64,000 bases of DNA from an uncultured delta proteobacterium (GTDB lineage: Bacteria; Desulfobacterota; Binatia; Binatales; Binataceae): contig CAWEEQ010000004.1 in the NCBI GenBank assembly GCA_963808235.1, forward strand, positions 1,376,001-1,440,000, read 5' to 3'. The notes under the pieces were generated by a model. The model ran no database searches. It saw nothing but the letters and a program-made list of their open reading frames with translations, and was not told the DNA's origin. Positions within the stretch are counted from its first letter, which is position 1, and each line of letters starts with the position of its first letter. Made by a program: the position numbers and the translations under genes. Positions 3,867-60,522 of the stretch are shown one piece after another.

Positions 3867-3936
3867 ACTCTCACCTACCGGCCGCTTTGCAGCTGGCCGC
3901 CCTCTCTCGTGAAATAACGGGCGAGCTAAGAATGTT

Positions 3937-4357
3937 CTATGCCAGTAGGTCGCGGCGGGGGAAGAAGAACGCGATTTCCTGCGCGGCGGTTTCTGGGGCG
4001 TCGGAGCCGTGGGTGGAGTTTTGTTCTACGTCGAGGCCGAAGTCTTTGCGGATGGTGCCGAAGTCGGCTTTTTTTGGGTCGGTCGCGCCCATCAGTTGGC
4101 GCCATTTTAAGATTGCGCCTTCGGCTTGCAGCACTGCTACTACCACCGGGCCTGAGGTCATGTACTCGCAGAGGCCGCTGAAGAATGGCTTCGACTTTGT
4201 GGACGTCGTAGAAGCGCTCGGCGTCGGGGCGAGAGAGTTGCAGCTTGCGCATCGCGACTATTTTGAGGCCCGACGATTCGATGCGTTTCAGGATGTCGCC
4301 GGTTAGTCCGCGGCGGACTGCGTCGGGTTTTAGGATGGCGAGAGTTTGTTCGATCAA
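3937..4357 (-). CDS. ndk: Nucleoside-diphosphate kinase (one frameshift near 4195, likely sequencing error)
   Basis: [13 protein letters not shown]-terminus in one frame; MTSGPVV...GTIRKDFG...NSTHGSD in another. Confidence 0.93.
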
Positions 4358-4424
4358 AGTTTATTCTCCCGTATCAGTGGTCGGCTCCGCGTGCCCTAAG
4401 CGGAGTTGAAGGGTTTTGCGCCGA

Positions 4425-5697: not shown

Positions 5698-6861
5698 CTA
5701 GGCTCCGATTTCTTTTACTATTCGGTGGGCGGCGTCGGCCATGTTGGTGGCTGTGATCACCTTGATGCCGGAGTCGGCGAGGATTTTCTTGCCCTCGGTG
5801 ACGTTGGTGCCTTCCATCCGTACTACCAGCGGGACGTTGAGCTTCACCTGTTTTGCGGCCTCGACGACGCCTTGCGCGAGCACGTCGCATCGCATGATGC
5901 CGCCGAAGATGTTGATCAGCACGCCTTTGACGCGCTTGTCGGCGAGCAGGATGCGGAACGCGGCGGCGACTTTCTCGGTGCTCGCGCCGCCGCCGACGTC
6001 GAGGAAGTTGGCCGGCTCGGCGCCATAGATTTTCACGATGTCCATCGTGGCCATCGCGAGTCCCGCGCCATTGACCATGCATCCGATGTTGCCGTCGAGG
6101 TGCACGTAGCTGAGATCGAACTTCGCGGCCTCGGTCTCGGCGGGATCTTCCTCGTTGGGGTCGCGCAGCTCGCGGATGTCAGCGTGACGGATGAGGCCGT
6201 TGTCGTCGAACGACATTTTCGCGTCGAGGCAGATCACACGGCCGTCGGTGGTGACGACCAGCGGATTGATTTCTATCAGCGATGCGTCGGTCTCGATGAA
6301 GGCCTTGTAGATCGACGCGAGCATCGTAGCGAACTGTCCGACCTGCTTGTCCTTGAGCCCGAGTGCGAACGCGATCTTGCGCGCCTGGAATCCCGCGACG
6401 CCGAGCAATGGATTGATGAACTCGGTGAGAATCTTCTGCGGCGTCTTGGCGGCGACTTCTTCGATGTCCATGCCGCCTTCGGTGCTCGCGATCACGGCGA
6501 CCGAGCCGGCCTTTCGATCGACGAGCATCCCGAGGTACAGCTCGCGCGCGATTTGGCTCGCCTCCTCGACGTACATGTGACGGACGACGCGGCCCTCGGG
6601 GCCGGTCTGATGCGTCACGAGCGGCTTGCCGAGCAAGTTTGCGGCGAAGTCGCGCGCTTCGTCGGCGCTCGAGAGGAGTTTCACACCGCCGGCTTTGCCA
6701 CGTCCGCCCGCATGGATCTGCACTTTGACGACGGCTTTCGGTTGGCCCAGCGCTTTGAATGCGGACGCGACTTCGTCGGGGGTCGACGCGGGCTGTCCTT
6801 TGGGGACGGGGACGCCGAAGCGGGCGAGGATTTGTTTGGCTTGGTATTCGTGGATGTTCAT
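5698..6861 (-). CDS. sucC: Succinyl-CoA ligase beta subunit
   Basis: [44 protein letters not shown]. Confidence 0.98.
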
Positions 6862-6938
6862 TCGGTTACCTTAAGAGGTGCATTCGGCGAGATGCAAATT
6901 CGATGGGCTCCGTGCACACCTCGAGCATTCACGTTCGC

Positions 6939-7271
6939 TCACGTCGCCAATAACTTTCCGACCGTTGCCGACACGGCGCGTTGGTCCGTTCGAGATAGGC
7001 TACCCGTTTTGTGCAGAATGAGCCGATTGTCCAGAGTAAAGAGTTTCATGCGAACTTTTGACGAGGCTTGCAGGCCCGCCTGTCCAGCGTCGATCGCGAC
7101 ATCCATCGGCCATGGAGCGTTGCTGGCGCTAGTTATCATTGCCAAGACCGTGTGACCGCTCTCATCACTAAAACTCTCTGAAGAAAGAGCCAGCGCCGGT
7201 CGACGCTTGCTCGCTCGCCGGTCAGTGAAGGGAAAAGGCACAACTACAACGTCGAAGGGTTTACAGGTCAC
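6939..7271 (-). CDS. PemK/MazF-family type II toxin
   Basis: DVVVVPFPFTD...KRRPALALS...AMITS; overlaps the antitoxin stop. Confidence 0.9.
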   Translation of the reverse strand: MTCKPFDVVVVPFPFTDRRASKRRPALALSSESFSDESGHTVLAMITSASNAPWPMDVAIDAGQAGLQASSKVRMKLFTLDNRLILHKTGSLSRTDQRAVSATVGKLLAT

Positions 7272-7521
7272 GATAGGCGCGATCGTCGTTTTTCGAGTTC
7301 CACTCCGACAAGGTCTTCTCCAATGCCAAGAGGAACTCGAGATCGAGGGGCTCCGCTTTGCGGATACGGACTGTACCGGCTTTCGGCTCTTCGAATATCA
7401 CGGTATCGCCTGGTTTCAGATGCAAGCGTTTGCGAACGGACAATGGAACCGTGGCCTGACCTTTAGTCGTAAGCCGGCTGGTAGCGATTGCTTGAACGGC
7501 TGCACGCTTTGAACGAGCCAT
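7261..7521 (-). CDS. AbrB/MazE/PrlF-family antitoxin
   Basis: SRLTTKGQATVPLSVRKRLHLKPGDTVIF AbrB fold; C-terminal EWNSKNDDRAYRDL. Confidence 0.9.
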   Translation of the reverse strand: MARSKRAAVQAIATSRLTTKGQATVPLSVRKRLHLKPGDTVIFEEPKAGTVRIRKAEPLDLEFLLALEKTLSEWNSKNDDRAYRDL

Positions 7522-7539
7522 AATTAGTCAATCCCAAGA

Positions 7540-7553
7540 AGTAATACCTTACT
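7540..7553. promoter_or_regulatory. Probable toxin-antitoxin autoregulatory operator
   Basis: Inverted repeat AGTAA-TACC-TTACT in an AT-rich region just upstream of the antitoxin; extra half-site at 7561-7565. Confidence 0.55.
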
Positions 7554-7595
7554 ACCATTATTACTGCATCGAGTCTGAACCGGCAATATCGTCAT

Positions 7596-8345
7596 TTACG
7601 CGCTGCGGCGGAACATGCGGAATAGTTTTTTGATTGGATCGTAAAACTCGTCGGCTACGCGCTCCTTCAATGGGATGATCGCGTTATCGGTGATGTGAAT
7701 GTCTTCGGGGCATACGTTGGTGCAGCACTTGGTGATGTTGCAGTAGCCGATGCCGTAATCGTTCTTCAGCGCGGCGACGCGGTTGCCGGTGTCGAGCGGA
7801 TGCATCTCGAGCGCGGCGGTGAAGACCAGCAGGCGCGGGCCGATGAACTCGTCTTCGAGCTCATGGTCGCGCAACACGTGGCATACGTCCTGGCACAGGA
7901 AGCATTCGATGCACTTGCGGAATTCCTGGACGCGCTCGATGTCCTCCTGCTGGATGCGCCAACTGCCGTCGGGAGCGTCTGGCTTGCGCGGCGCGAACTT
8001 CGGAATTTTTTTCTTGGTGTCGAAGTTCCACTTGACCTTGGTGACGAGATCCTTGATGCGCGGAAAAGTATGCATCGGCTCGATGCTGATCGGCTCGCCG
8101 ACCGGCAGCGTGTCCATCCGGGTCATGCACATCAGGCGCGGATGGCCGTTGATTTCCGCGGAGCATGAGCCGCACTTGCCGGCCTTGCAATTCCATCGCA
8201 CGGCGAGATCGTTCGCTTGCTCGGCCTGGATCTGATGCACGACGTCGAGCACGACCATCCCTTCATCGACGCGGGCCTTGTACTCCTTGAAGTCGCCGCC
8301 AGTGGCGTCGCCGCGCCAGATGAGGAAGGTTGCGTCGGTGCTCAC
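7596..8345 (-). CDS. sdhB: Succinate dehydrogenase/fumarate reductase iron-sulfur subunit (Sdh1 type)
   Basis: CKAGKCGSC, CIECFLCQDVC, CNITKCCTNVCP; GTG start overlaps the sdhA stop. Confidence 0.93.
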   Translation of the reverse strand: MSTDATFLIWRGDATGGDFKEYKARVDEGMVVLDVVHQIQAEQANDLAVRWNCKAGKCGSCSAEINGHPRLMCMTRMDTLPVGEPISIEPMHTFPRIKDLVTKVKWNFDTKKKIPKFAPRKPDAPDGSWRIQQEDIERVQEFRKCIECFLCQDVCHVLRDHELEDEFIGPRLLVFTAALEMHPLDTGNRVAALKNDYGIGYCNITKCCTNVCPEDIHITDNAIIPLKERVADEFYDPIKKLFRMFRRSA

Positions 8346-10155
8346 TTGTTTTCCTCGATGATCTGTTTCAACTCGGGCGGCATTTCCTTGATCGTGTCGC
8401 GGCGAATGTTCATCCCGCCGTCGCTTTTCGTCGTGATGACATTTACTTTTGCGAACTCGTCGCTCTTGTCCGGGAAGTCGTCGCGGAAATGTCCGCCGCG
8501 GCTTTCCTTGCGTTCGATCGCGCATCGCGCGATGCACTCGGAGACCATCAGCAAGTTGCGCAAATCGAGCGCAGTGTGCCAGCCGTTGTTGTACATGCGG
8601 TTGCCGTCGACGCGGACATGCTCGGCGCGGCGCTTGTATTCCTCGATCTTCGCGAGCGCCTCGACCATCTCGTTTTCGCGGCGCGCGATACCGACCAGGT
8701 TCTGCATCGTGTCCTGCAGCTCGAACTGAATCGCGTAGGGTGCCTCGGTCTTGTCGGTGTGAGGTTCGAACGGGCGCAGCGAGAGTTTGAGCGCGTCGTC
8801 AACCTGGCGCGGGTTGATTTTGCCGAAGTCGTGCTCCTTGGCGAACATCGCGGCAAATGCTCCGGCGCGTTGGCCGAAGACCAGCAAATCAGAGAGCGAG
8901 TTGCCGCCGAGGCGATTTGCGCCGTGCAATCCCGCAGCTGCCTCGCCGGCGGCATAGAGGCCGGGCGTCGTCGAGCTTTGGGTGTCACCATCGACGCGAA
9001 TCCCGCCCATCACGTAGTGCGTAGTCGGTCCGATTTCCATCGGGACCTTGGTGATGTCGACATTCGCGAGCTTGATGAACTGGTGATACATCGAGGGCAG
9101 CTTGCGCTTGATGTGCTCCTCGGCGTTCGGGAGCTTCTCCTTGATCCACGCGATGTCGAGGAAGACGCCACCGTGCGGGCTGCCCCGACCTTCGCGAACT
9201 TCGCGGACGATCATGCGGGCGACGTGATCGCGAGTCAGCAGCTCGGGCGGACGACGCGCACTTTTGTCGCCCTGGGTGTAGCGCCAGCCTTCTTCCTCGT
9301 TGTCGGCGGTCGAACTTTTGTAGGCGTCGGGGATCTCGCCGAACAGGAAACGCTCCCCTTTGCTGTTGCGCAGGACACCGCCCTCTCCGCGCACTCCTTC
9401 GGTGACCAGGATTCCGGCGACGCTCAGCGGCCAGATCATGCCGGTCGGATGGAACTGGACGAACTCCATGTCCATCAGCTCGGCACCGGCGTTGTATGCC
9501 AGCGCCTGGCCGTCGCCGGTGTACTCCCAACTGTTGGAAGTGATCTTGTAGGCGCGGCCGATTCCGCCGGTCGCGATGACGACGGCTTTCGCGCGCCACA
9601 GGTAGAAGAAGCCGCGCTCGCGATCGTAGCCGAACGCGCCGGCGATTCGGCCGTCGTCGACGAGCAGCGAGACGACGGTGGTTTCCATGTAAACGTCGAG
9701 GCCGCGATGAATCCCGTTGTCCTGGAGCACGCGGATCATCTCGAGGCCGGTGCGGTCGCCGACGTGCGCCAGGCGTGGATAACGATGGCCGCCGAAGTTG
9801 CGCTGGAGGATTTTGCCGTCCTTGGTGCGATCGAACGCGGCGCCCCACTCCTCGAGTTCGTGCACTCGTGCGGGGGCTTCCTTGGCGTGCAGCTCGGCCA
9901 TCCGCCAGTTGTTCACATACTGGCCGCCGCGCATCGTGTCGGCAAAATGAACTTTCCAATTGTCGCGATCGTCGACGTTGCCCATCGCCGCCGCGACTCC
10001 GCCCTCGGCCATCACGGTGTGAGCCTTGCCGAGAAGCGATTTGCAGATCAGCGCGACCTTCGCACCGCCGGCGGACGCCTCGATCGCGGCGCGCAGTCCG
10101 GCGCCGCCGGCACCGATCACCAGCACATCGTGTTGCCGCTCTTCGTATTCAGCCA

Positions 10156-10156: not shown

Positions 10157-11980
<1,824 letters not shown>

Positions 11981-50372: not shown

Positions 50373-51431
50373 CTAATTCGGAATTTCCACCAGCTCGAGT
50401 ATCAGACCCGCTAGCGCCTCTTCGCGCTCCTTCACCTCACCGTTCTTGAATCCCGCATCCAGCTCGCATGCTCGCGCGTAAGCGCGTTCGAGTCGCGGCT
50501 GCCCAAGCCGTCTTGCGCCCTCGATCGCGCGCATCGCAAGCCCGCTCTGCGGAGACACACCTAGCGCACCGGCGACGTCGCCGGCGCTCTTATTCGCCGC
50601 GAGCATCGAGGCGGCGATCATCATCCGCCTCATCACGGGGATGACTTCCAACGCCAGGATTTCGAAGACGTCGCGACCGAGCGCGATCGCGCGCCCCAGT
50701 TGCGCGAGCGCAGACGATGCTCGTCCGCGCGCCAGGCTCTCCGCGAGCTCAAACAACTCCGGCATCCGCTGCGCGCCCTGCTCATCCAGATCGCCCGGCT
50801 TCACCAACGCGCCCGGTTCCGCGACGATGGTGACCTTCGCGAGCGCATTGACGATCGCCGCCAAATCTCCGCCGTGGCGCGAGATCAACATGTCGAGCGC
50901 GGCGGGTGCGAGCTTCAATCCGAGCCGATGCGCGAAGACCTGCACGTATTGTTCGATCTGATTATCGAAGGGCCGCATGCAATTCACCAGCAGCGCCGAC
51001 TTCTCCGCCGCGCGCCGAACTTTCGCGGGCGCGTTGTCTTTTTCGTAGAGCAGAATCAGATAACCGGGACCGCGCGCCGCTTCGATTGCGGCGACCAGCG
51101 CTGCTTCTCCGCCTTGTGCGCCCGGCGTGCGCGAGTCCGCGGGCTCCGCATCGTCGCTGCGCTCACGCCGGGAGCGCAGGATTCGGCACGCGATCGCGCG
51201 CTTGGGTGCGAACAAGTCTGGCGCGCGCAACTCGTTGAGCATCGCGCCGTAATCGTCGCTCGCGCCGATTTGAAAGCCGCGGTATTGGCAGCCCTCGCCG
51301 ATCGCGGCGCGAACCACCGTGTCGAGAACGTACTCGCGAAGGAATGCGTGCGGACCGAAGATTACGATCACCGGCGGGAGCTTGCGTGCGGCGGCGCCAC
51401 GCAAGTACGCGAGCGCGGGTTCAACCGGCAT
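50373..51431 (-). CDS. holA: DNA polymerase III delta subunit
   Basis: VIFGPHAFL, DLF, GDLAAIVNALAK, D..FKNG; lptE-holA/rpsT synteny. Confidence 0.85.
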   Translation of the reverse strand: MPVEPALAYLRGAAARKLPPVIVIFGPHAFLREYVLDTVVRAAIGEGCQYRGFQIGASDDYGAMLNELRAPDLFAPKRAIACRILRSRRERSDDAEPADSRTPGAQGGEAALVAAIEAARGPGYLILLYEKDNAPAKVRRAAEKSALLVNCMRPFDNQIEQYVQVFAHRLGLKLAPAALDMLISRHGGDLAAIVNALAKVTIVAEPGALVKPGDLDEQGAQRMPELFELAESLARGRASSALAQLGRAIALGRDVFEILALEVIPVMRRMMIAASMLAANKSAGDVAGALGVSPQSGLAMRAIEGARRLGQPRLERAYARACELDAGFKNGEVKEREEALAGLILELVEIPN

Positions 51432-51463
51432 ACGGTCGTGCCCGACTTTCCCGCGGCATCGGT

Positions 51464-52069
51464 CTAGAAACCCTCGGCCATCTCGGCGTACAGGTTCTGC
51501 GCAACCATCTGCATCATCGTGTCTTGCGAAGCCGCGGTCATCGCCCCCGCCGTCTGGATATCCGTCATGTGGGAAATATCGCCGGCGCGCAGATTTTGCT
51601 GCAGGAAGGTCGGCGTCGTGGTGACCACGGTCTGTGCCACGATCGGCGTATGCTGGGTGTTGCCGACGTTGCGGGTCGACCAAATGGTTTTGTTCGTGTG
51701 CGTGTCTTTGAGCTCAGCGGTAACTTCCATCGTCTGGTTGTAGTTGGTCGGTTCCAAAACCGAGTTGAAGTTCACCGGCACGGACGTGGCGTACCTGATG
51801 ATGCCGGTCAGCTGCAGGTCCGCATCGGTGGGACTGTCAACTACCTTGAGCCGGCGATGCAACGCGATTTCATCTTTGACGTAGCGCATGAACTCGTCGT
51901 TGATTCCGGTGATGCGGGTGTGATTTTTGAACTGCTCAACGTAAATAGTCTGCGCCGCCGAAGGCAGCGCGTCGCCCGAGCCCGCGAAATGGTATCCGCA
52001 TCCCGAGAGAGCCGCGAGCATCGCGAGCCCCACGAGCTTACTCAGGCTTGGATAGTGCGACTTCGTCAC
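51464..52069 (-). CDS. lptE: LPS assembly lipoprotein LptE
   Basis: LSGCGYHF lipobox, IYVEQFKN, ADLQLTG; upstream of holA. Confidence 0.85.
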   Translation of the reverse strand: MTKSHYPSLSKLVGLAMLAALSGCGYHFAGSGDALPSAAQTIYVEQFKNHTRITGINDEFMRYVKDEIALHRRLKVVDSPTDADLQLTGIIRYATSVPVNFNSVLEPTNYNQTMEVTAELKDTHTNKTIWSTRNVGNTQHTPIVAQTVVTTTPTFLQQNLRAGDISHMTDIQTAGAMTAASQDTMMQMVAQNLYAEMAEGF

Positions 52070-52484
52070 CTTTATTCTTGAGTCCGAGTCGTCCCGCGAT
52101 TTCGTCGAGCACTCCGTTGACGAATCGTCCCGACTCGATATCGCCGTAGCACTTTGCAAGTTCGATCGCCTCATCGATGGTCACGCGCGCGGGAATATCG
52201 TCCATCCTGAGCAGCTCGAACAGCGCGATCCGCATGATGTTATGATCGACGCGGGAGAGCCGCTTGACCGACCAGTGTTCGAGCGCGTCGGCCAGATGCT
52301 TGTCGAGCGCGACCTGCTCGCCGCGCACGCCTTCCATCAGCGTCACCGCAAACTTTCGCGCGCTGTCCTCGGCGGCAAAGCTGTCGAACAGGACGGCCAG
52401 GTCGTCAGTGCTCGCGCCGCCGCATATATCGATTCGATATAGCGCCTTCAGCGCGAGCTCACGCCCAAGATGTCTTAGTCCCAT
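52038..52484 (-). CDS. nusB: Transcription antitermination factor
   Basis: RELALKALY, WSVKRL..VD, IDEAIELAK, FVNGVLD. Confidence 0.95.
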   Translation of the reverse strand: MGLRHLGRELALKALYRIDICGGASTDDLAVLFDSFAAEDSARKFAVTLMEGVRGEQVALDKHLADALEHWSVKRLSRVDHNIMRIALFELLRMDDIPARVTIDEAIELAKCYGDIESGRFVNGVLDEIAGRLGLKNKGDEVALSKPE

Positions 52485-52542
52485 CGCAGTTCAATAGTAC
52501 TCGCGCCCGCGCCATTTGAAACGCGCCGCGAGCGGAAAACTT

Positions 52543-53754
52543 TCAGGTGATTAACTTGAGCTCCGAGAACAGGTGTCCGAGTTTTTCTTTTTTGGTTTTC
52601 AGGTATCCGATATTGCCCGCATGCGGGGTGACTTCGATCGGCACCCGCGAGACGTTCACTCCGTAGCGGCGGAGGCTTTCGATCTTGTGCGGATTGTTGG
52701 TGAGCAGCTGCACTTCGCCGACGCCGAGATCGCGCAGAATCTGCGCGCCGATTCCATAGTCGCGCAAATCTTCCTCGAAGCCGAGATGAAGATTCGCTTC
52801 CACCGTGTCCATCCCCTGGTCCTGCAATGCGTAGGCGCGAATCTTGTTTCCGAGTCCGATGCCGCGGCCTTCCTGATGAAGGTAGATGATCACGCCGGAA
52901 TCCGCCGCCATTATGCGCTCGAGAGCTTCCTGCAACTGCTCGCCGCAATCGCATCGCGCCGACGCGAACACATCTCCGGTCAGGCATTCCGAATGGAGCC
53001 GCACCAGCACCGGCCGTCCGCCACCGACCTGGCCCTTAAGCAGCGCAAGATGCTCTCGGCCATCGACGATGTTCTTGAAGATCACCGCTCGCAGCACGCC
53101 GCCGCTGATAGGGAACGGCTTCTCGGAAACGCGCTGAACCAGCACCTCGTTGGTCAGGCGCCAGGAGACGAGGTCCTTGATATAGCAAATCGGGATCGAA
53201 TGCGCGGCCGCGAATTCGCGAAGTTCCGGCAGGCGCGCTGCCTCGCCGTCATCGCGGAGCATCGTGCACAGCGCCGCGGCGGGACTCAACCCGGCCGAAC
53301 GTACAAGGTCCACTGCGCCTTCCGCGCGTCCCATTCGCATCATCACGCCGCCGCTCATCGCCATCAGCGGCAACACGTGACCGGGCATCACGATATCGTC
53401 GTGGCGGGATTCCTCGAAGGAGACCACCGAGATCACGCGGGCGCGATCCGCGGCCGAGATGCCGGTGGTGGCGCCCTCGCGCGCATCGATCAGCGATCCG
53501 ACCTGCTCGAGAGAATTGCCGTTGTCGGTGCTTGGCATCACCGGAATGCCGAGCTCGCGGAATCGCTTGTCGGGTATCGCGACGGAGACGATACCGCGCG
53601 CCTCGCGGGCCATGAAATTGATGTCGTCGGGGGTGATCTTTTCCGCCGCCATCACGAGGTCGCCCTCGGCGTCCTCGCGTTCCTCGGCCACCATCACGAC
53701 CATCTTGCCGTCGCGCAGTGCGGAGAAAATCTCTTCTAATGAAGCTGATGACAT
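52543..53754 (-). CDS. ribBA: RibBA fusion: degenerate DHBP synthase domain plus intact GTP cyclohydrolase II
   Basis: RibA motifs [28 protein letters not shown] intact; RibB motifs altered; alternative start at 53784. Confidence 0.92.
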
Positions 53755-53796
53755 CTTATGTTCGTCGCCGATGGATATTATCACTGGCCTACCGGC

Positions 53797-54940
53797 CTAA
53801 CCAGTGCGGCCTTTTCCATTCACAGTCCTGGATCGTTTGCGATGCGCGAGGCGGGCTTCGAGTAACCAGTCGTCGCCGACGCGGCGCGCGGTAAAATCGG
53901 CAAGCTCGGATGGGTCGCGTAGTCCGCCTGCGTGCATCCCCGCGATAGCCGGGATGCCCGCGCCGAAAATTTTCGGGGCGACGAAGAATGCGACTCGATC
54001 GACTATGCCGGCCTCTAGCGCCGACCCGGCTAGGTGAGCGCCGCCTTCGATCAGGACATTGGACCATCCGCGCCGCCCAAATTCATGCATGAGCTCGTCG
54101 AGTGCGAGTTCGCCCGCGTGCGCGTTGACTGAAATCACCTCGACTCCGCGCGCGCGCGTATTTTCGGCGCGCGCGGGCGAGATTCGCATTTGTCGTGACG
54201 ATAATCGCCGCCGCCTTTGATCGTTCGCGATAGACCCGGGCCGTTGGCGCGGTGCGAAGTCGGGCGTCGATGATGACGCGCACCGGATCGCGGCCGCCGG
54301 CTATCCGGCACGTGAGGCGTGGGTCGTCGGCAATCACGGTGCCCGCGCCGACCATCACCGCGTCGCATTCGCGGCGCCATCGATGCACCAGCTCGCGCGA
54401 CGGCGCCGAACTTATCCATTTCATCGATCGCGAGTCAGCCGCGATTCTGCCGTCGAGAGTCATCGCGAGCTTCAGGATTCCGGCTGGGCGGCCGCGCGTG
54501 ATGCGGGTGATGAATCCTTCGTTGAGCCGTTTCGCCGCGTTTTCCAATACTCCGGTCGTGACTTCGATTCCGGCGCGTTTCAGGATTGCGATCCCGCGCC
54601 CCTTAACGCGCGGATCAGGATCGAGGCATCCGACCACGACTCTCTTTACTCCGGCGTCGACCAACGCGTTTGCGCAGGGCGGAGTCTGTCCGACGTGAGC
54701 GCACGGCTCGAACGAAACGTAGGCGGTCGCGCCGCGAGCTTTGCTTCCCGCGACATAGAGCGCCCGCGCTTCGCCGTGCGGACGTCCGCCCGTAGCGGTC
54801 ACGCCGCGCGCGACGACTTTGCCGGCGCGAACGATCACGCATCCCACTGCAGGATTCGGGGTGGTCAGGCCGAGCTGAGCTTCTGCGAGCGAGAGAGCCT
54901 CGCGCATAAAGCGATCGTCGGTCTCCGCAGAGCCGCGCAT
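53797..54940 (-). CDS. ribD: Pyrimidine deaminase/reductase RibD (frameshift in a (CG)6 tract near 54147-54158)
   Basis: PNPAVG, HGE, EPCAH...PPC, KLAMTLDG, GAGTV; IEGGA in a second frame. Confidence 0.92.
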
Positions 54941-54948
54941 GTTGGGAA

Positions 54949-55458
54949 TCAGGAGGCCGAGTCGCCCTTCTTGTCGCCGCGCGTCGTGGCGGGAGGGCCT
55001 TGCTTGCGTTGATTGATCAGGTCTTCGAGTTCGTGCATGAACTCATCGATATCCTTGAACGATCGATAAACCGACGCGAAGCGGACGTATGCAACCTGGT
55101 CGATCTTGTGCAACTCGTTCATGACCGCGGCGCCGATCTTGTGGCTCGGGACTTCGCGGTCACTCTGCTCGCTCATCGCAGTTTCGATATTGCCGGCGAT
55201 CTGCTCGATCGTTTCCATGGAGACCGGCCGCTTCTCACAGGCGCGCTTCAACCCTGCGATTATCTTCGCTCGATCGAACGGCTCGCGCCGCCCATCCTTC
55301 TTCACGACCATCGGCGCCGATTCCTCGACTCGTTCGTAAGTGGTGAAGCGGCGCTTGCATGCGTTGCACATCCGCCGGCGCCGGATCATCCCGCCGTCCG
55401 CAGACAGCCTGGAATCGACCACGCGATTTCCGCGCTTGCGGCAGAAGGGGCACCGCAT
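54949..55458 (-). CDS. nrdR: Transcriptional repressor NrdR
   Basis: MRCPFC...VVDSR...RRRMC..C.RRFTTYE; AYVRFASVY. Confidence 0.97.
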
Positions 55459-56978: not shown

Positions 56979-58361
56979 TTAATTTTTCGAATGCTCCGGC
57001 GAATCGTCGTCCGTCTTCAACTCCCTGGTTCCGGATTTGAGCTCGCCCGACAGGTGTTTCTTGTCCCCGCTCGCAACCCCGTTGTGTGCCGGGGCCGGCG
57101 TGCCATCGACCGCCGAGCTCGAGTGCGACGACTCATAGCGCGCGCGCTCGATCTTCAACTCGTCGGGGCTACGTTCAGTCCCATGCTCCGGCGGCGGCTC
57201 GTGCTGTCCGTCGGCGGGATGCGCTTCCCGGTCTGGGTGCGGATGCGTTTCCTTGTCTGGATGGGCATGCGCGTCTTCCTTTTCGCGCCGGTGCAACCGC
57301 TCACGCATTTTACCGAACAACGCGCGGATTCCCTTGCCTGCGGGCTTAACTGGCGCAACGGGTTGAATCTTGGCAAGAATTTCAAGAATTTCCGCGTTCA
57401 CATGATGCACCAGCTGCTCGTTCGCGGCGGCGCGAATTGCGCTCCGAATTGCGCGCGGATTCGACGAGCCATGCGCGATTATCGATACCCCGCTGACTCC
57501 GAGCAGCGGCGCGCCGCCGTATTCCGAGGGGTCGAGTCGCTCGCGCATCGCAGTGAGGTGTTTGCGTATCAGCAGGTATGCTAGCCGGGTGCGCCAGTTC
57601 GCGCCGAACAGCCCGCGCAGACTGCCCAGCATGAACGATGCAAATCCTTCCATCGTCTTCAGCGCGACGTTTCCGTTGAACCCGTCGGTGACGACGATAT
57701 CCACCTTGGCCCGGTTGATATCGCGCCCCTCGACGTAGCCAACGTAGTGGACGTAGGTCGGCATCTGCTGGAGCATCGCCGCCGCGGCGCGCGTGATATC
57801 GGTGCCCTTGGACGCTTCCTCGCCGTTGGACAGAATGCCAACTCGTGGCCGCGAAACGTTTCGCACATGGCGCCAATACACGCTGCCCATCACGGCGAAC
57901 TGCACGAGGTTGATTGGCTTTACGTCGGTGTTCGCGCCCGCGTCTATCAAGAGCCCGAAGCCCTCGCTGGTGGGCACCAGCGACGCGATCGCGGGCCGGT
58001 CGACGTTGGCGAGATTGCCAAGGATCATCATCGAGGCGGTCATCACCGCGCCCGAATTTCCGGCGCTAACGAATGCGCTCGCGTCTCCGCGCTTTACGAG
58101 ATCGAGTCCAACGTGAATCGACGAGCGCGGCTTCGACAGGACCGACTCGAGTGGCGAGTCGTCCATCAGCACAACTTCGGGTGCATGCTCGATTCGAATC
58201 GGCAGGTTGGCGGCGTCGTGGTCGGCAAGTTCGCGGGCAAGGATCTCCCCGTCGCCCACCAACACGACCTCGATGCCGAAGTCGCGGGCGGCCAGGACGG
58301 CGCCTTCAACGGTCGCCTTTGGGGCGAGATCACCCCCCATCGCGTCGAGCGCGATTTTCAC
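56979..58361 (-). CDS. plsX: Phosphate acyltransferase PlsX with long His/Pro/charged C-terminal extension
   Basis: IALDAMGGD, SAGNSGA, DAGAN, DGFNGNVALK, HGSS. Confidence 0.96.
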   Translation of the reverse strand: MKIALDAMGGDLAPKATVEGAVLAARDFGIEVVLVGDGEILARELADHDAANLPIRIEHAPEVVLMDDSPLESVLSKPRSSIHVGLDLVKRGDASAFVSAGNSGAVMTASMMILGNLANVDRPAIASLVPTSEGFGLLIDAGANTDVKPINLVQFAVMGSVYWRHVRNVSRPRVGILSNGEEASKGTDITRAAAAMLQQMPTYVHYVGYVEGRDINRAKVDIVVTDGFNGNVALKTMEGFASFMLGSLRGLFGANWRTRLAYLLIRKHLTAMRERLDPSEYGGAPLLGVSGVSIIAHGSSNPRAIRSAIRAAANEQLVHHVNAEILEILAKIQPVAPVKPAGKGIRALFGKMRERLHRREKEDAHAHPDKETHPHPDREAHPADGQHEPPPEHGTERSPDELKIERARYESSHSSSAVDGTPAPAHNGVASGDKKHLSGELKSGTRELKTDDDSPEHSKN

Positions 58362-59133: not shown

Positions 59134-59262
59134 TCACTGGTTCACTGGTCACCGTGATCAATTTGACGAAACTGGGACGAGAATTATTGCACGTCGCGCC
59201 CGATGTTCAAATACGCGGTTTAGCTGTAGCTTCAGGGATATTTTATTGAAAGGATCCCGCCG

Positions 59263-60522
59263 ATGGCGACTGGGCGATTTGATTTTCCGAAAAATTTCCT
59301 GTGGGGTACCGCGACCGCGGCCCATCAGGTCGAAGGCAGCAACATCAACAGCGACTACTGGGTGCTGGAGCATACTCCCGGCTCGCCGTTCGTCGAGCCA
59401 TCGGGCGACGCTTGCGACCAGTACCATCGCTACGCCGACGACATCGCGATGCTCGCGCGGCTCGGCTTCAACAGCTACCGATTTTCGATTGAATGGGCCC
59501 GCGTCGAGCCGGAGCCGGGCGAGTTCTCAACCGCAGAACTCGATCACTATCGCCGGCTGTTGGCGTGCTGCCACGAGCACAAGGTAACGCCCATAGTGAC
59601 GTTTCATCATTTCACGTCGCCGCGATGGGTCACCGGTGACGGCGGATGGGAAAACAGGAAAACTGCCGAGCGCTTCGCTACCTACTGCGAGCGCGCGGCC
59701 GGCCATCTTGGCGACCTGATCGGCGTCGCGTGCACGATCAACGAGGCCAATCTCGGCGCCTACCAATATCTGATCGGCACGCTGCCGGCCAAATTTGACC
59801 CGGCGCACCTGCCGTGGCTCGCGGAAGCGGCGCGCAGAATCGGCGCCGACCCGAATCGCTTCGCCCCTTCATGATGTGCGATCAGATGAAGGCGCGCGAC
59901 ACGATGCTCGAGGCACATCGGCTCTCGGCCGCGGCGCTCAAATCGTCGCGGGGCAAATTTCCGGTCGGCATCTGCCTCGCGCTCGGCGACCTGCAGGCCG
60001 ATGCCAGGCGGCGAGGATCGACGCGATCGCATCAAGGCGGAATGCCAGGACATCTTCTACGAAGCGGCGCGGGGAGACGATTTCATCGGCGTGCAAACCT
60101 ACACAAGAAACCGCATCGCCGCCGATCGCACACTCGGACCCGAAGCCGGCGTCGAGACGACACTGATGGGCTACGAGTTCTGGCCCGAGGCGCTCGAGGC
60201 AACGATCCGGCAGGCGAGCGCAGTCGCCAAAGTCCCGGTGATCGTCACCGAAAACGGCATCGGCACCGACAAGGACGATAGGCGCATCGAGTACGTGCGG
60301 CGCGCATTAAACGGCGTCGCGCGATGCATCCGCGACGGCATCGACGTTCGCGGCTACTGCTACTGGTCGCTCCTCGACAACTACGAATGGAACTCGGGCT
60401 ATCGTCCAACCTTCGGATTGGTGGCCGTCGATCGTAAAACTCAAGCCCGCACGGAGAAGCCCAGCGCCCGATGGCTCGGCGAAATCGCGCGCGCCAACGC
60501 AATCGACCTCGCGACCGAGTGA
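59263..60522 (+). CDS. Glycoside hydrolase family 1 (frameshifts near 59865 and 59998)
   Basis: FLWGTATAAHQVEG, TINEA, VTENG, YWSLLDNYEW over three ORF pieces. Confidence 0.9.

Follow-up and report, generated by a model that had tools for sequence, protein, structure and literature searches.

The 64-kb stretch of DNA analysed here (hereafter the window) lies on contig CAWEEQ010000004.1 of assembly GCA_963808235.1, from an uncultured soil bacterium of the Binataceae (phylum Binatota), and carries a riboflavin biosynthesis locus whose ribBA gene appears to have lost the function of its RibB half. Open reading frames (ORFs) and Pfam assignments give the order plsX, fabD, acpP, nrdR, ribD, ribBA, nusB, lptE and holA, all on the minus strand. 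The ribBA gene (52543..53784), recognised by Pfam, NCBIfam and a Protein Data Bank (PDB) match, encodes a fusion protein in which a RibB-like pseudo-domain precedes an intact GTP cyclohydrolase II. The first domain, derived from 3,4-dihydroxy-2-butanone 4-phosphate (DHBP) synthase and with its catalytic set replaced, covers residues ~15-212 (53149..53742), and the intact RibA domain covers residues ~218-407 (52564..53133). The true start of the gene is probably the ATG at 53754, which is favoured because most homologues are 403 residues long. Upstream lies the deaminase/reductase gene ribD (53797..54940; Pfam dCMP_cyt_deam_1 and RibD_C, 293 bits to TIGR00326), which is split over two frames, and nusB (52038..52484; Pfam NusB) sits directly after ribBA, in the usual place of ribH. 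The conserved string is opened by nrdR (54949..55458; Pfam Zn_ribbon_NrdR and ATP-cone) and has lptE and holA (50373..52174; Pfam LptE and DNA_pol3_delta_C) at its downstream end. No terminator-like site was seen on the minus strand from nrdR to holA in a consensus scan, which is a weak test.

The gap between ribD and ribBA measures 12 bp (42 bp if counted to the ATG at 53754) and that between ribBA and nusB 58 bp, and therefore ribE and ribH do not fit. A sequence-only reading of this DNA that preceded the present analysis had claimed exactly this, that ribD runs into ribBA and ribBA into nusB without room for either gene, and the claim was borne out both by the gaps and by the homology searches described below.

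To describe the state of the two halves, the window protein was aligned with RibBA from 78 of 80 loci, L029 and L041 being left out as partial matches. Invariant columns were defined on 51 canonical RibBA proteins of other phyla, which gave 38 columns in RibB and 51 in RibA. The RibB half of the window protein is changed at 11 of its 38 columns (D33A, D34E, R37E, E38D, N39A, C67S, T93E, F138L, T154A, E174T and M182A). A further change, H153R, falls outside the invariant set; the canonical proteins carry His at this column in 35 of 51 cases and Gln in the other 16, and column 153 alone is not diagnostic of inactivity. E38, H153, C67, T154 and E174 are, going by DHBP synthase structures, the metal-binding and acid/base residues of the enzyme. 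Residues H136, R150, E155, E40 and D42 are kept.

Homology of this half to DHBP synthase is evident in both sequence and fold. The Pfam DHBP_synthase profile scores 204 bits and is covered from position 1 to 190 of 191, compared with 214 bits in the protein of L025, a related locus outside the family. The curated models give a different answer. The score against TIGR00506 (ribB) is 166.6, below the cut-off of 177.45, and that against the bifunctional RibBA equivalog NF006803 is 483.9, below the cut-off of 569. A canonical control, L030, reaches 251.7 with TIGR00506 and lies above the cut-off for the ribA, ribB and bifunctional models. The alterations in the RibB half exceed chance drift and, judged from its residues and scores, the half is very probably catalytically dead. 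The sequence-only reading had called the domain dead on the strength of four altered motifs. Those motifs (RMGRAE among them) read exactly as it quoted them and its verdict on the domain is upheld. For the last of them, the reading of RMGRAE against the consensus RxGHTE stands, but the supposed invariance of the His does not, given the Gln of 16 canonical proteins.

The RibA half, in contrast, is unaltered. None of its 51 invariant columns is changed and it scores 245.4 against TIGR00505 (ribA), above the cut-off of 205.85, which agrees with the earlier statement that the recognisable RibA motifs are intact. Pfam GTP_cyclohydro2 scores 228 bits, and the half aligns with Escherichia coli GTP cyclohydrolase II (2bz0) through the zinc motif HSECLTGD...RCDCG. 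Curated score, invariant residues and the Cys zinc motif thus all agree with GTP cyclohydrolase II, and we infer that the window protein is a monofunctional enzyme of this kind.

Judging from substitution patterns, purifying selection maintains the putatively dead half. The ratio of non-synonymous to synonymous substitution rates (dN/dS; Nei-Gojobori, 253 pairs of which 250 were unsaturated, L023 being left out owing to an in-frame stop) has a median of ~0.22 in the RibB-like half, compared with ~0.12 in RibA. Corresponding values are 0.09-0.14 and 0.06-0.08 in the group of related loci outside the family, where 4 of 6 pairs were usable. Among the best 120 homologues (70-100% identity) the replacements are close to fixed, with R153 and A154 present in 120/120, S67 and Q94 in 116 each, E93 in 114 and A39 in 106. 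The substrate-contact residues R150, H136, T107-G108-I109-S110, E155 and D42 are also kept in this set. The claim that a dead domain had been retained was thereby supported, both in the comparison of dN/dS by domain and in the near-fixation of its replacements. Residues 33-38, once the acidic substrate loop and invariant in active enzymes, show only 48-72% conservation in Binataceae.

Degeneration of this kind is wider than the family. Seventeen of the 150 representatives nearest to the dead domain differ at three or more of 17 key DHBP synthase positions. Eight of them are fragments of the Binataceae type and the other nine (P0249, P0253, P0264, P0284, P0313, P0321, P0366, P0367 and P0378) belong to different lineages; therefore, degenerate RibB halves recur elsewhere. 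P0249, a protein of 408 residues from a JGI metagenome, has S67, R153, A154 and A174 in common with the Binataceae form and, on these shared residues, may be a deeper branch of it.

An AlphaFold2 model of the window protein built on a 131-row alignment has a mean predicted local distance difference test (pLDDT) score of 86.7 and a predicted template modelling score of 0.82. Foldseek matches the model to chain 4i14_A, Mycobacterium tuberculosis RibA2, with E=2.5e-36 and to DHBP synthase chains with template modelling (TM) scores of 0.83-0.94 and root-mean-square deviations of 1.5-2.5 Å. When two copies of residues 11-212 were modelled as a homodimer, the score was 0.73 compared with 0.32 for the best control. 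Among proteins of solved structure, 20 of 30 same-chain pairs and 1 of 23 single chains attained the same mark, counts that calibrate the score only roughly, a purpose-made alignment having been used here. The dimer runs agreed in at least 80% of contacts, with a partner pLDDT of at least 89. However, the pass may mirror only the likeness of the domain to solved DHBP synthase dimers. Among the residues at the modelled interface are the changed positions 95-98, 138, 174 and 182.

The window and 23 related loci (450,025 bp in total) were searched for the two missing genes. No match to ribE or ribH was found in the window by tblastn with 4 RibE and 3 RibH queries, and profile hidden Markov models (HMMs) of RibE (47 sequences) and RibH (49 sequences) had a best E of 2.3 over six-frame pieces of the 450,025 bp. 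Nor did the profile HMM search find relics of either gene in the intergenic gaps. The canonical arrangement ribD-ribE-ribBA-ribH is absent from the window locus. Among assessable Binataceae loci, ribE lies beside ribBA in 0 of 20 and ribH in 0 of 21, compared with 38 of 46 and 39 of 49 loci from other phyla (ribH being apart from ribBA in the other 10 of 49).

The order nrdR-ribD-ribBA-nusB-lptE-holA recurs throughout the 23 related loci, apart from L018 and L023. Adjacency of ribBA and nusB is seen at every Binataceae locus that extends that far, nrdR holds the same position at 19 of the 23, and lptE and holA are syntenic in most of them. Those in which nrdR was not seen are L007, L009, L013 and L019, where the contig ends, and L023, which is rearranged. 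In L023 (1-10000) the position of nrdR and ribD is taken by accC, accB, a cold-shock gene, ZIP, dprA and topA; judged from this locus, rib genes have been relocated within Binataceae. In L018, ~3.9 kb (6074-10001) is inserted between ribD and ribBA. The insert carries a gene for a DpnII/MboI-like restriction endonuclease, an ORF of 639 residues that matches nothing in Pfam, and a RibB-like fragment (7628-7807; ~60 residues) that is duplicated.

The order of events can be read from the nearest loci outside Binataceae. These four sister loci (L024, L025, L027 and L071) show 52-54% identity, with 66-68% in NrdR, and have the same fabD...nrdR...nusB...lptE synteny. Their operon is complete, in the order nrdR-ribD-ribE-ribBA-ribH-nusB. 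Nevertheless, the RibB half is degenerate here too, with substitutions in 13 of the 38 invariant columns (among them D42F, H136Y in 3 of 4, T154I/V, E174Q and R184F/L), and T107 and I109 are lost as well as D42 and H136. Their RibA half is changed at 0 of 51. In a tree of the RibA domain, the 24 Binataceae rows are united in one clade (100) and the split with the four sister loci has 99% support in the Shimodaira-Hasegawa-like approximate likelihood ratio test; the tree comes from a quick search and its midpoint root serves for drawing only.

A degenerate RibB half thus stands beside ribE and ribH in the sisters, and therefore inactivation of the domain does not go hand in hand with abandonment of the riboflavin branch. 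It also follows that DHBP synthase must act in trans there. Here the sequence-only reading, which had the three riboflavin-specific steps lost jointly, is not supported as it was stated. When the RibH of L025 was compared with a protein collection, the best 120 matches were all of the sister type, at least 77% identical and labelled Binatia, Binatota or Deltaproteobacteria, and an ESM Atlas look-up with the same protein returned generic lumazine-synthase clusters only. Such conservation of sequence fits a working lumazine synthase in the sister loci. However, the best 120 are saturated with sister-type sequences and are uninformative on the absence of RibH from Binataceae. A candidate for the trans-acting RibB, P0269/P0391, was found as the best short canonical match to the dead domain among representatives clustered at 50% identity and was rejected, its relatives being RibBX-type proteins of Betaproteobacteria/Burkholderiales.

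The locus is the ancestral housekeeping rib operon in a remodelled state, from which ribE and ribH have been lost cleanly. Taken together, the data point to an operon that has been split, an interpretation to which we assign a probability of roughly 0.6. Inactivation of the DHBP synthase half would have occurred once, in an ancestor of the Binatia whose operon still contained ribE and ribH and whose DHBP was presumably already supplied by an enzyme encoded elsewhere. Later, on the Binataceae stem, ribE and ribH would have left the operon. The remaining GTP cyclohydrolase II and RibD would supply 5-amino-6-ribitylaminouracil phosphate. The dead half would make no DHBP and, as the old active site is situated in the dimer interface, would persist as a folded module that forms dimers. 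Active ribB, ribH and ribE are most probably elsewhere in the genome, and the organism would then be a riboflavin prototroph.

Absence of ribE and ribH from the operon does not imply their absence from the genome, because ribH is non-adjacent in 10 of the 49 loci of other phyla and L023 has no ribD upstream. Inactivation of the domain together with loss of genes from the operon likewise does not show that the cell is unable to make riboflavin. We consider relocation of ribE and ribH much likelier than loss because of the complete sister loci, because rib genes scatter (L023, and ribH in other phyla), because flavoproteins are numerous in the window (Pfam identifies SdhA, an acyl-CoA dehydrogenase, an amine oxidase, FMO and DAO) and because we know of no organism that retains only RibA and RibD, or that keeps this half of the pathway for F420.

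Several observations weigh against the split operon as described. No Binataceae ribB, ribH or ribE was found in the DNA covered, which is 450 kb around one locus, so that their placing elsewhere in the genome reaches beyond it, and the candidate for a trans-acting RibB proved to be betaproteobacterial and of RibBX type. The ribD gene is frameshifted in this very window. Moreover, interface residues are not significantly more conserved in Binataceae than other residues of the domain (means of 0.80 and 0.78, one-sided p=0.066), and therefore a scaffold role is not singled out. The near-invariant pocket replacements R153, A154, E93, Q94 and S67 would fit ligand binding as well.

This last point leads to the first alternative, that the RibB-like domain has acquired a new function, either as a ligand sensor tuning GTP cyclohydrolase II (for ribulose 5-phosphate, DHBP or a flavin, for example) or in new chemistry. 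The near-fixed pocket, the retained substrate-contact residues and a dN/dS well under 1 would all be expected of such a domain. However, the sisters show different replacements and have lost D42, H136, T107 and I109, which argues against one conserved new pocket in Binatia. The acidic loop is relaxed, and several of the changed residues lie in the modelled dimer interface, a structural account of their conservation. We regard a new function as possible but rather unlikely.

The sequence-only reading had favoured a second alternative, in which Binataceae lack ribB activity, ribH and ribE genome-wide and import riboflavin, and RibA and RibD feed 5-amino-6-ribitylaminouracil to FO/F420 or to another ribityl-uracil product. 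In its favour, neither ribE nor ribH occurs at any of the 24 Binataceae loci (450 kb), and purifying selection on ribD and RibA means that their product is needed. Rfam detected no FMN riboswitch across the window and 7 loci, one tRNA being its sole match. Against it, dead RibB coexists with ribE and ribH in the sister Binatia and is hence no marker of branch loss, and the search covered the neighbourhood of one locus. General Pfam scans, which are weak evidence here, found no F420-type families among the ~55 genes of the window, and full-text literature searches found no paper linking Binatota or Binatia with F420 or riboflavin. The main text of Murphy et al. 2021 does not mention riboflavin or F420 (PMC8262859), riboflavin is mentioned only for a whole sponge community in PMC9999580, and PMC10434106 holds nothing relevant to the question. 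We think genome-wide loss improbable, and we hold the fuller version, in which riboflavin is imported, only RibA and RibD are kept and the former DHBP synthase domain serves for dimerisation or sensing, to be similarly doubtful. If it were true, Binataceae, which are widespread and free-living in soil, would be the first lineage known with only the shared pyrimidine branch. Should the genes prove absent genome-wide, abundant uncultured soil bacteria would depend on vitamin B2, with a bearing on their cultivation.

A third alternative, that the locus is decaying and the operon is a remnant on its way to loss, takes the ribD frameshift as real. An additional base within a (CG)6 run (~54147-54158), judged against L001, L002, L004 and L010, breaks the gene into ORFs at 54940-54083 and 54189-53797 and the Pfam match near profile position 108, a frameshift that the sequence-only reading had missed. 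The zinc motifs H(A/G)E and PC..PC are retained, and dN/dS stays at 0.15-0.30 before and after the shift (0.18-0.30 in the part downstream of it, as between intact relatives). Split reading frames also occur in the window in ndk (3929-4360), mdh (10851-11906) and a GH1 beta-glucosidase gene (59230-60519), which suggests indel errors of long-read assembly and not true pseudogenes, and another long contig, L003, has shifts in nrdR, ribD and nusB. The ribD frameshift is probably an assembly indel of the same kind, a very recent real mutation being the alternative. With ribD intact in the aligned relatives, ribBA open and no invariant RibA column changed, decay of the locus is very unlikely.

Finally, an RibB half that is still an active DHBP synthase with an alternative catalytic set would suit the Pfam score, nearly that of L025, and the retained H136, R150, E155, E40 and D42, but is extremely unlikely given the changes at E38, C67, T154 and E174, all invariant in the 51 canonical proteins, the further change at H153 (His or Gln there), the failed ribB cut-off and the precedent of plant RIBA3, which has exchanges in conserved DHBP synthase peptides and is without that activity (PMC3509567).

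RIBA3 is the closest known parallel in the direction of change. Arabidopsis AtRIBA3 is a bipartite RIBA that has lost DHBP synthase activity and kept GTP cyclohydrolase II, and its authors propose a structural or novel role for it (PMC3509567). The likeness extends to the same two domains, inactivation of the same half, exchanges in DHBP synthase peptides and long evolutionary retention. RIBA3 differs in its independent origin within a plant gene family, where a bifunctional paralogue, RIBA1, exists alongside. In Binataceae, unlike this setting, the gene is the only one of RibBA type in the ancestral operon and no bifunctional paralogue was found in the DNA examined.

RibBX of Acinetobacter baumannii (6mnz) is also derived from RibBA and has one half that is a non-catalytic relic, and the window protein resembles it in fold (TM 0.84 to 6mnz_A) and sequence (E=1.2e-63). 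The polarity is reversed, however, since in RibBX the RibB half is active and the RibA-like half dead, and the window protein is not an RibBX. With its RibA half intact and its RibB half degenerate, the earlier description of it as a mirror image of RibBX is fair. Organisms with RibBX reportedly have a separate ribA; the counterpart, a separate ribB of Binataceae, is presumed on the split-operon interpretation. Canonical RibBA, represented by M. tuberculosis RibA2 (4i14), shows homology over the full length (E=5e-102) and occupies the same operon slot between ribD and nusB, but the window protein falls under the NF006803 and ribB cut-offs and has 11 of 38 RibB columns changed. NF006456 (PRK08815; 376 positions), named GTP cyclohydrolase II RibA, aligns over both domains (query 16-406, profile 20-365). 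From its name and coverage, a curated bacterial family of long RibA with an RibB-homologous N-terminus, named as monofunctional, already seems to exist. However, the window protein is no member, with 212.5 against a cut-off of 464.

The gene of the window offers a bacterial parallel to plant RIBA3 that extends across the clade, and a mirror image of RibBX. With an order of events that can be read, in which death of the domain would come first and loss of ribE and ribH from the operon later, it is of use for the study of pseudoenzyme domains kept under selection. Automatic pipelines (JGI names) annotate the protein as bifunctional, with both DHBP synthase and GTP cyclohydrolase II. Pathways reconstructed for Binatia genomes would thus include a DHBP synthase that is almost certainly not there, and a real auxotrophy or a trans-acting enzyme could be missed.

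Other features of the window were noted in passing. The protein of plsX (56979-58361; 460 residues) has a C-terminal extension of ~140 residues, rich in His, Pro, Glu and Asp, past its FA_synthesis domain (profile 1-314). At the left end, a transposase of the IS1595 family (DDE_Tnp_IS1595 and a zinc ribbon, 645-2066) adjoins a TCA-cycle cluster of ndk, sucD, sucC, sdhB, sdhA and mdh. Between 41510 and 47390, a PMT-family (dolichyl-phosphate-mannose-type) glycosyltransferase of 1044 residues is encoded next to a protein of 689 residues with a PA14 domain.

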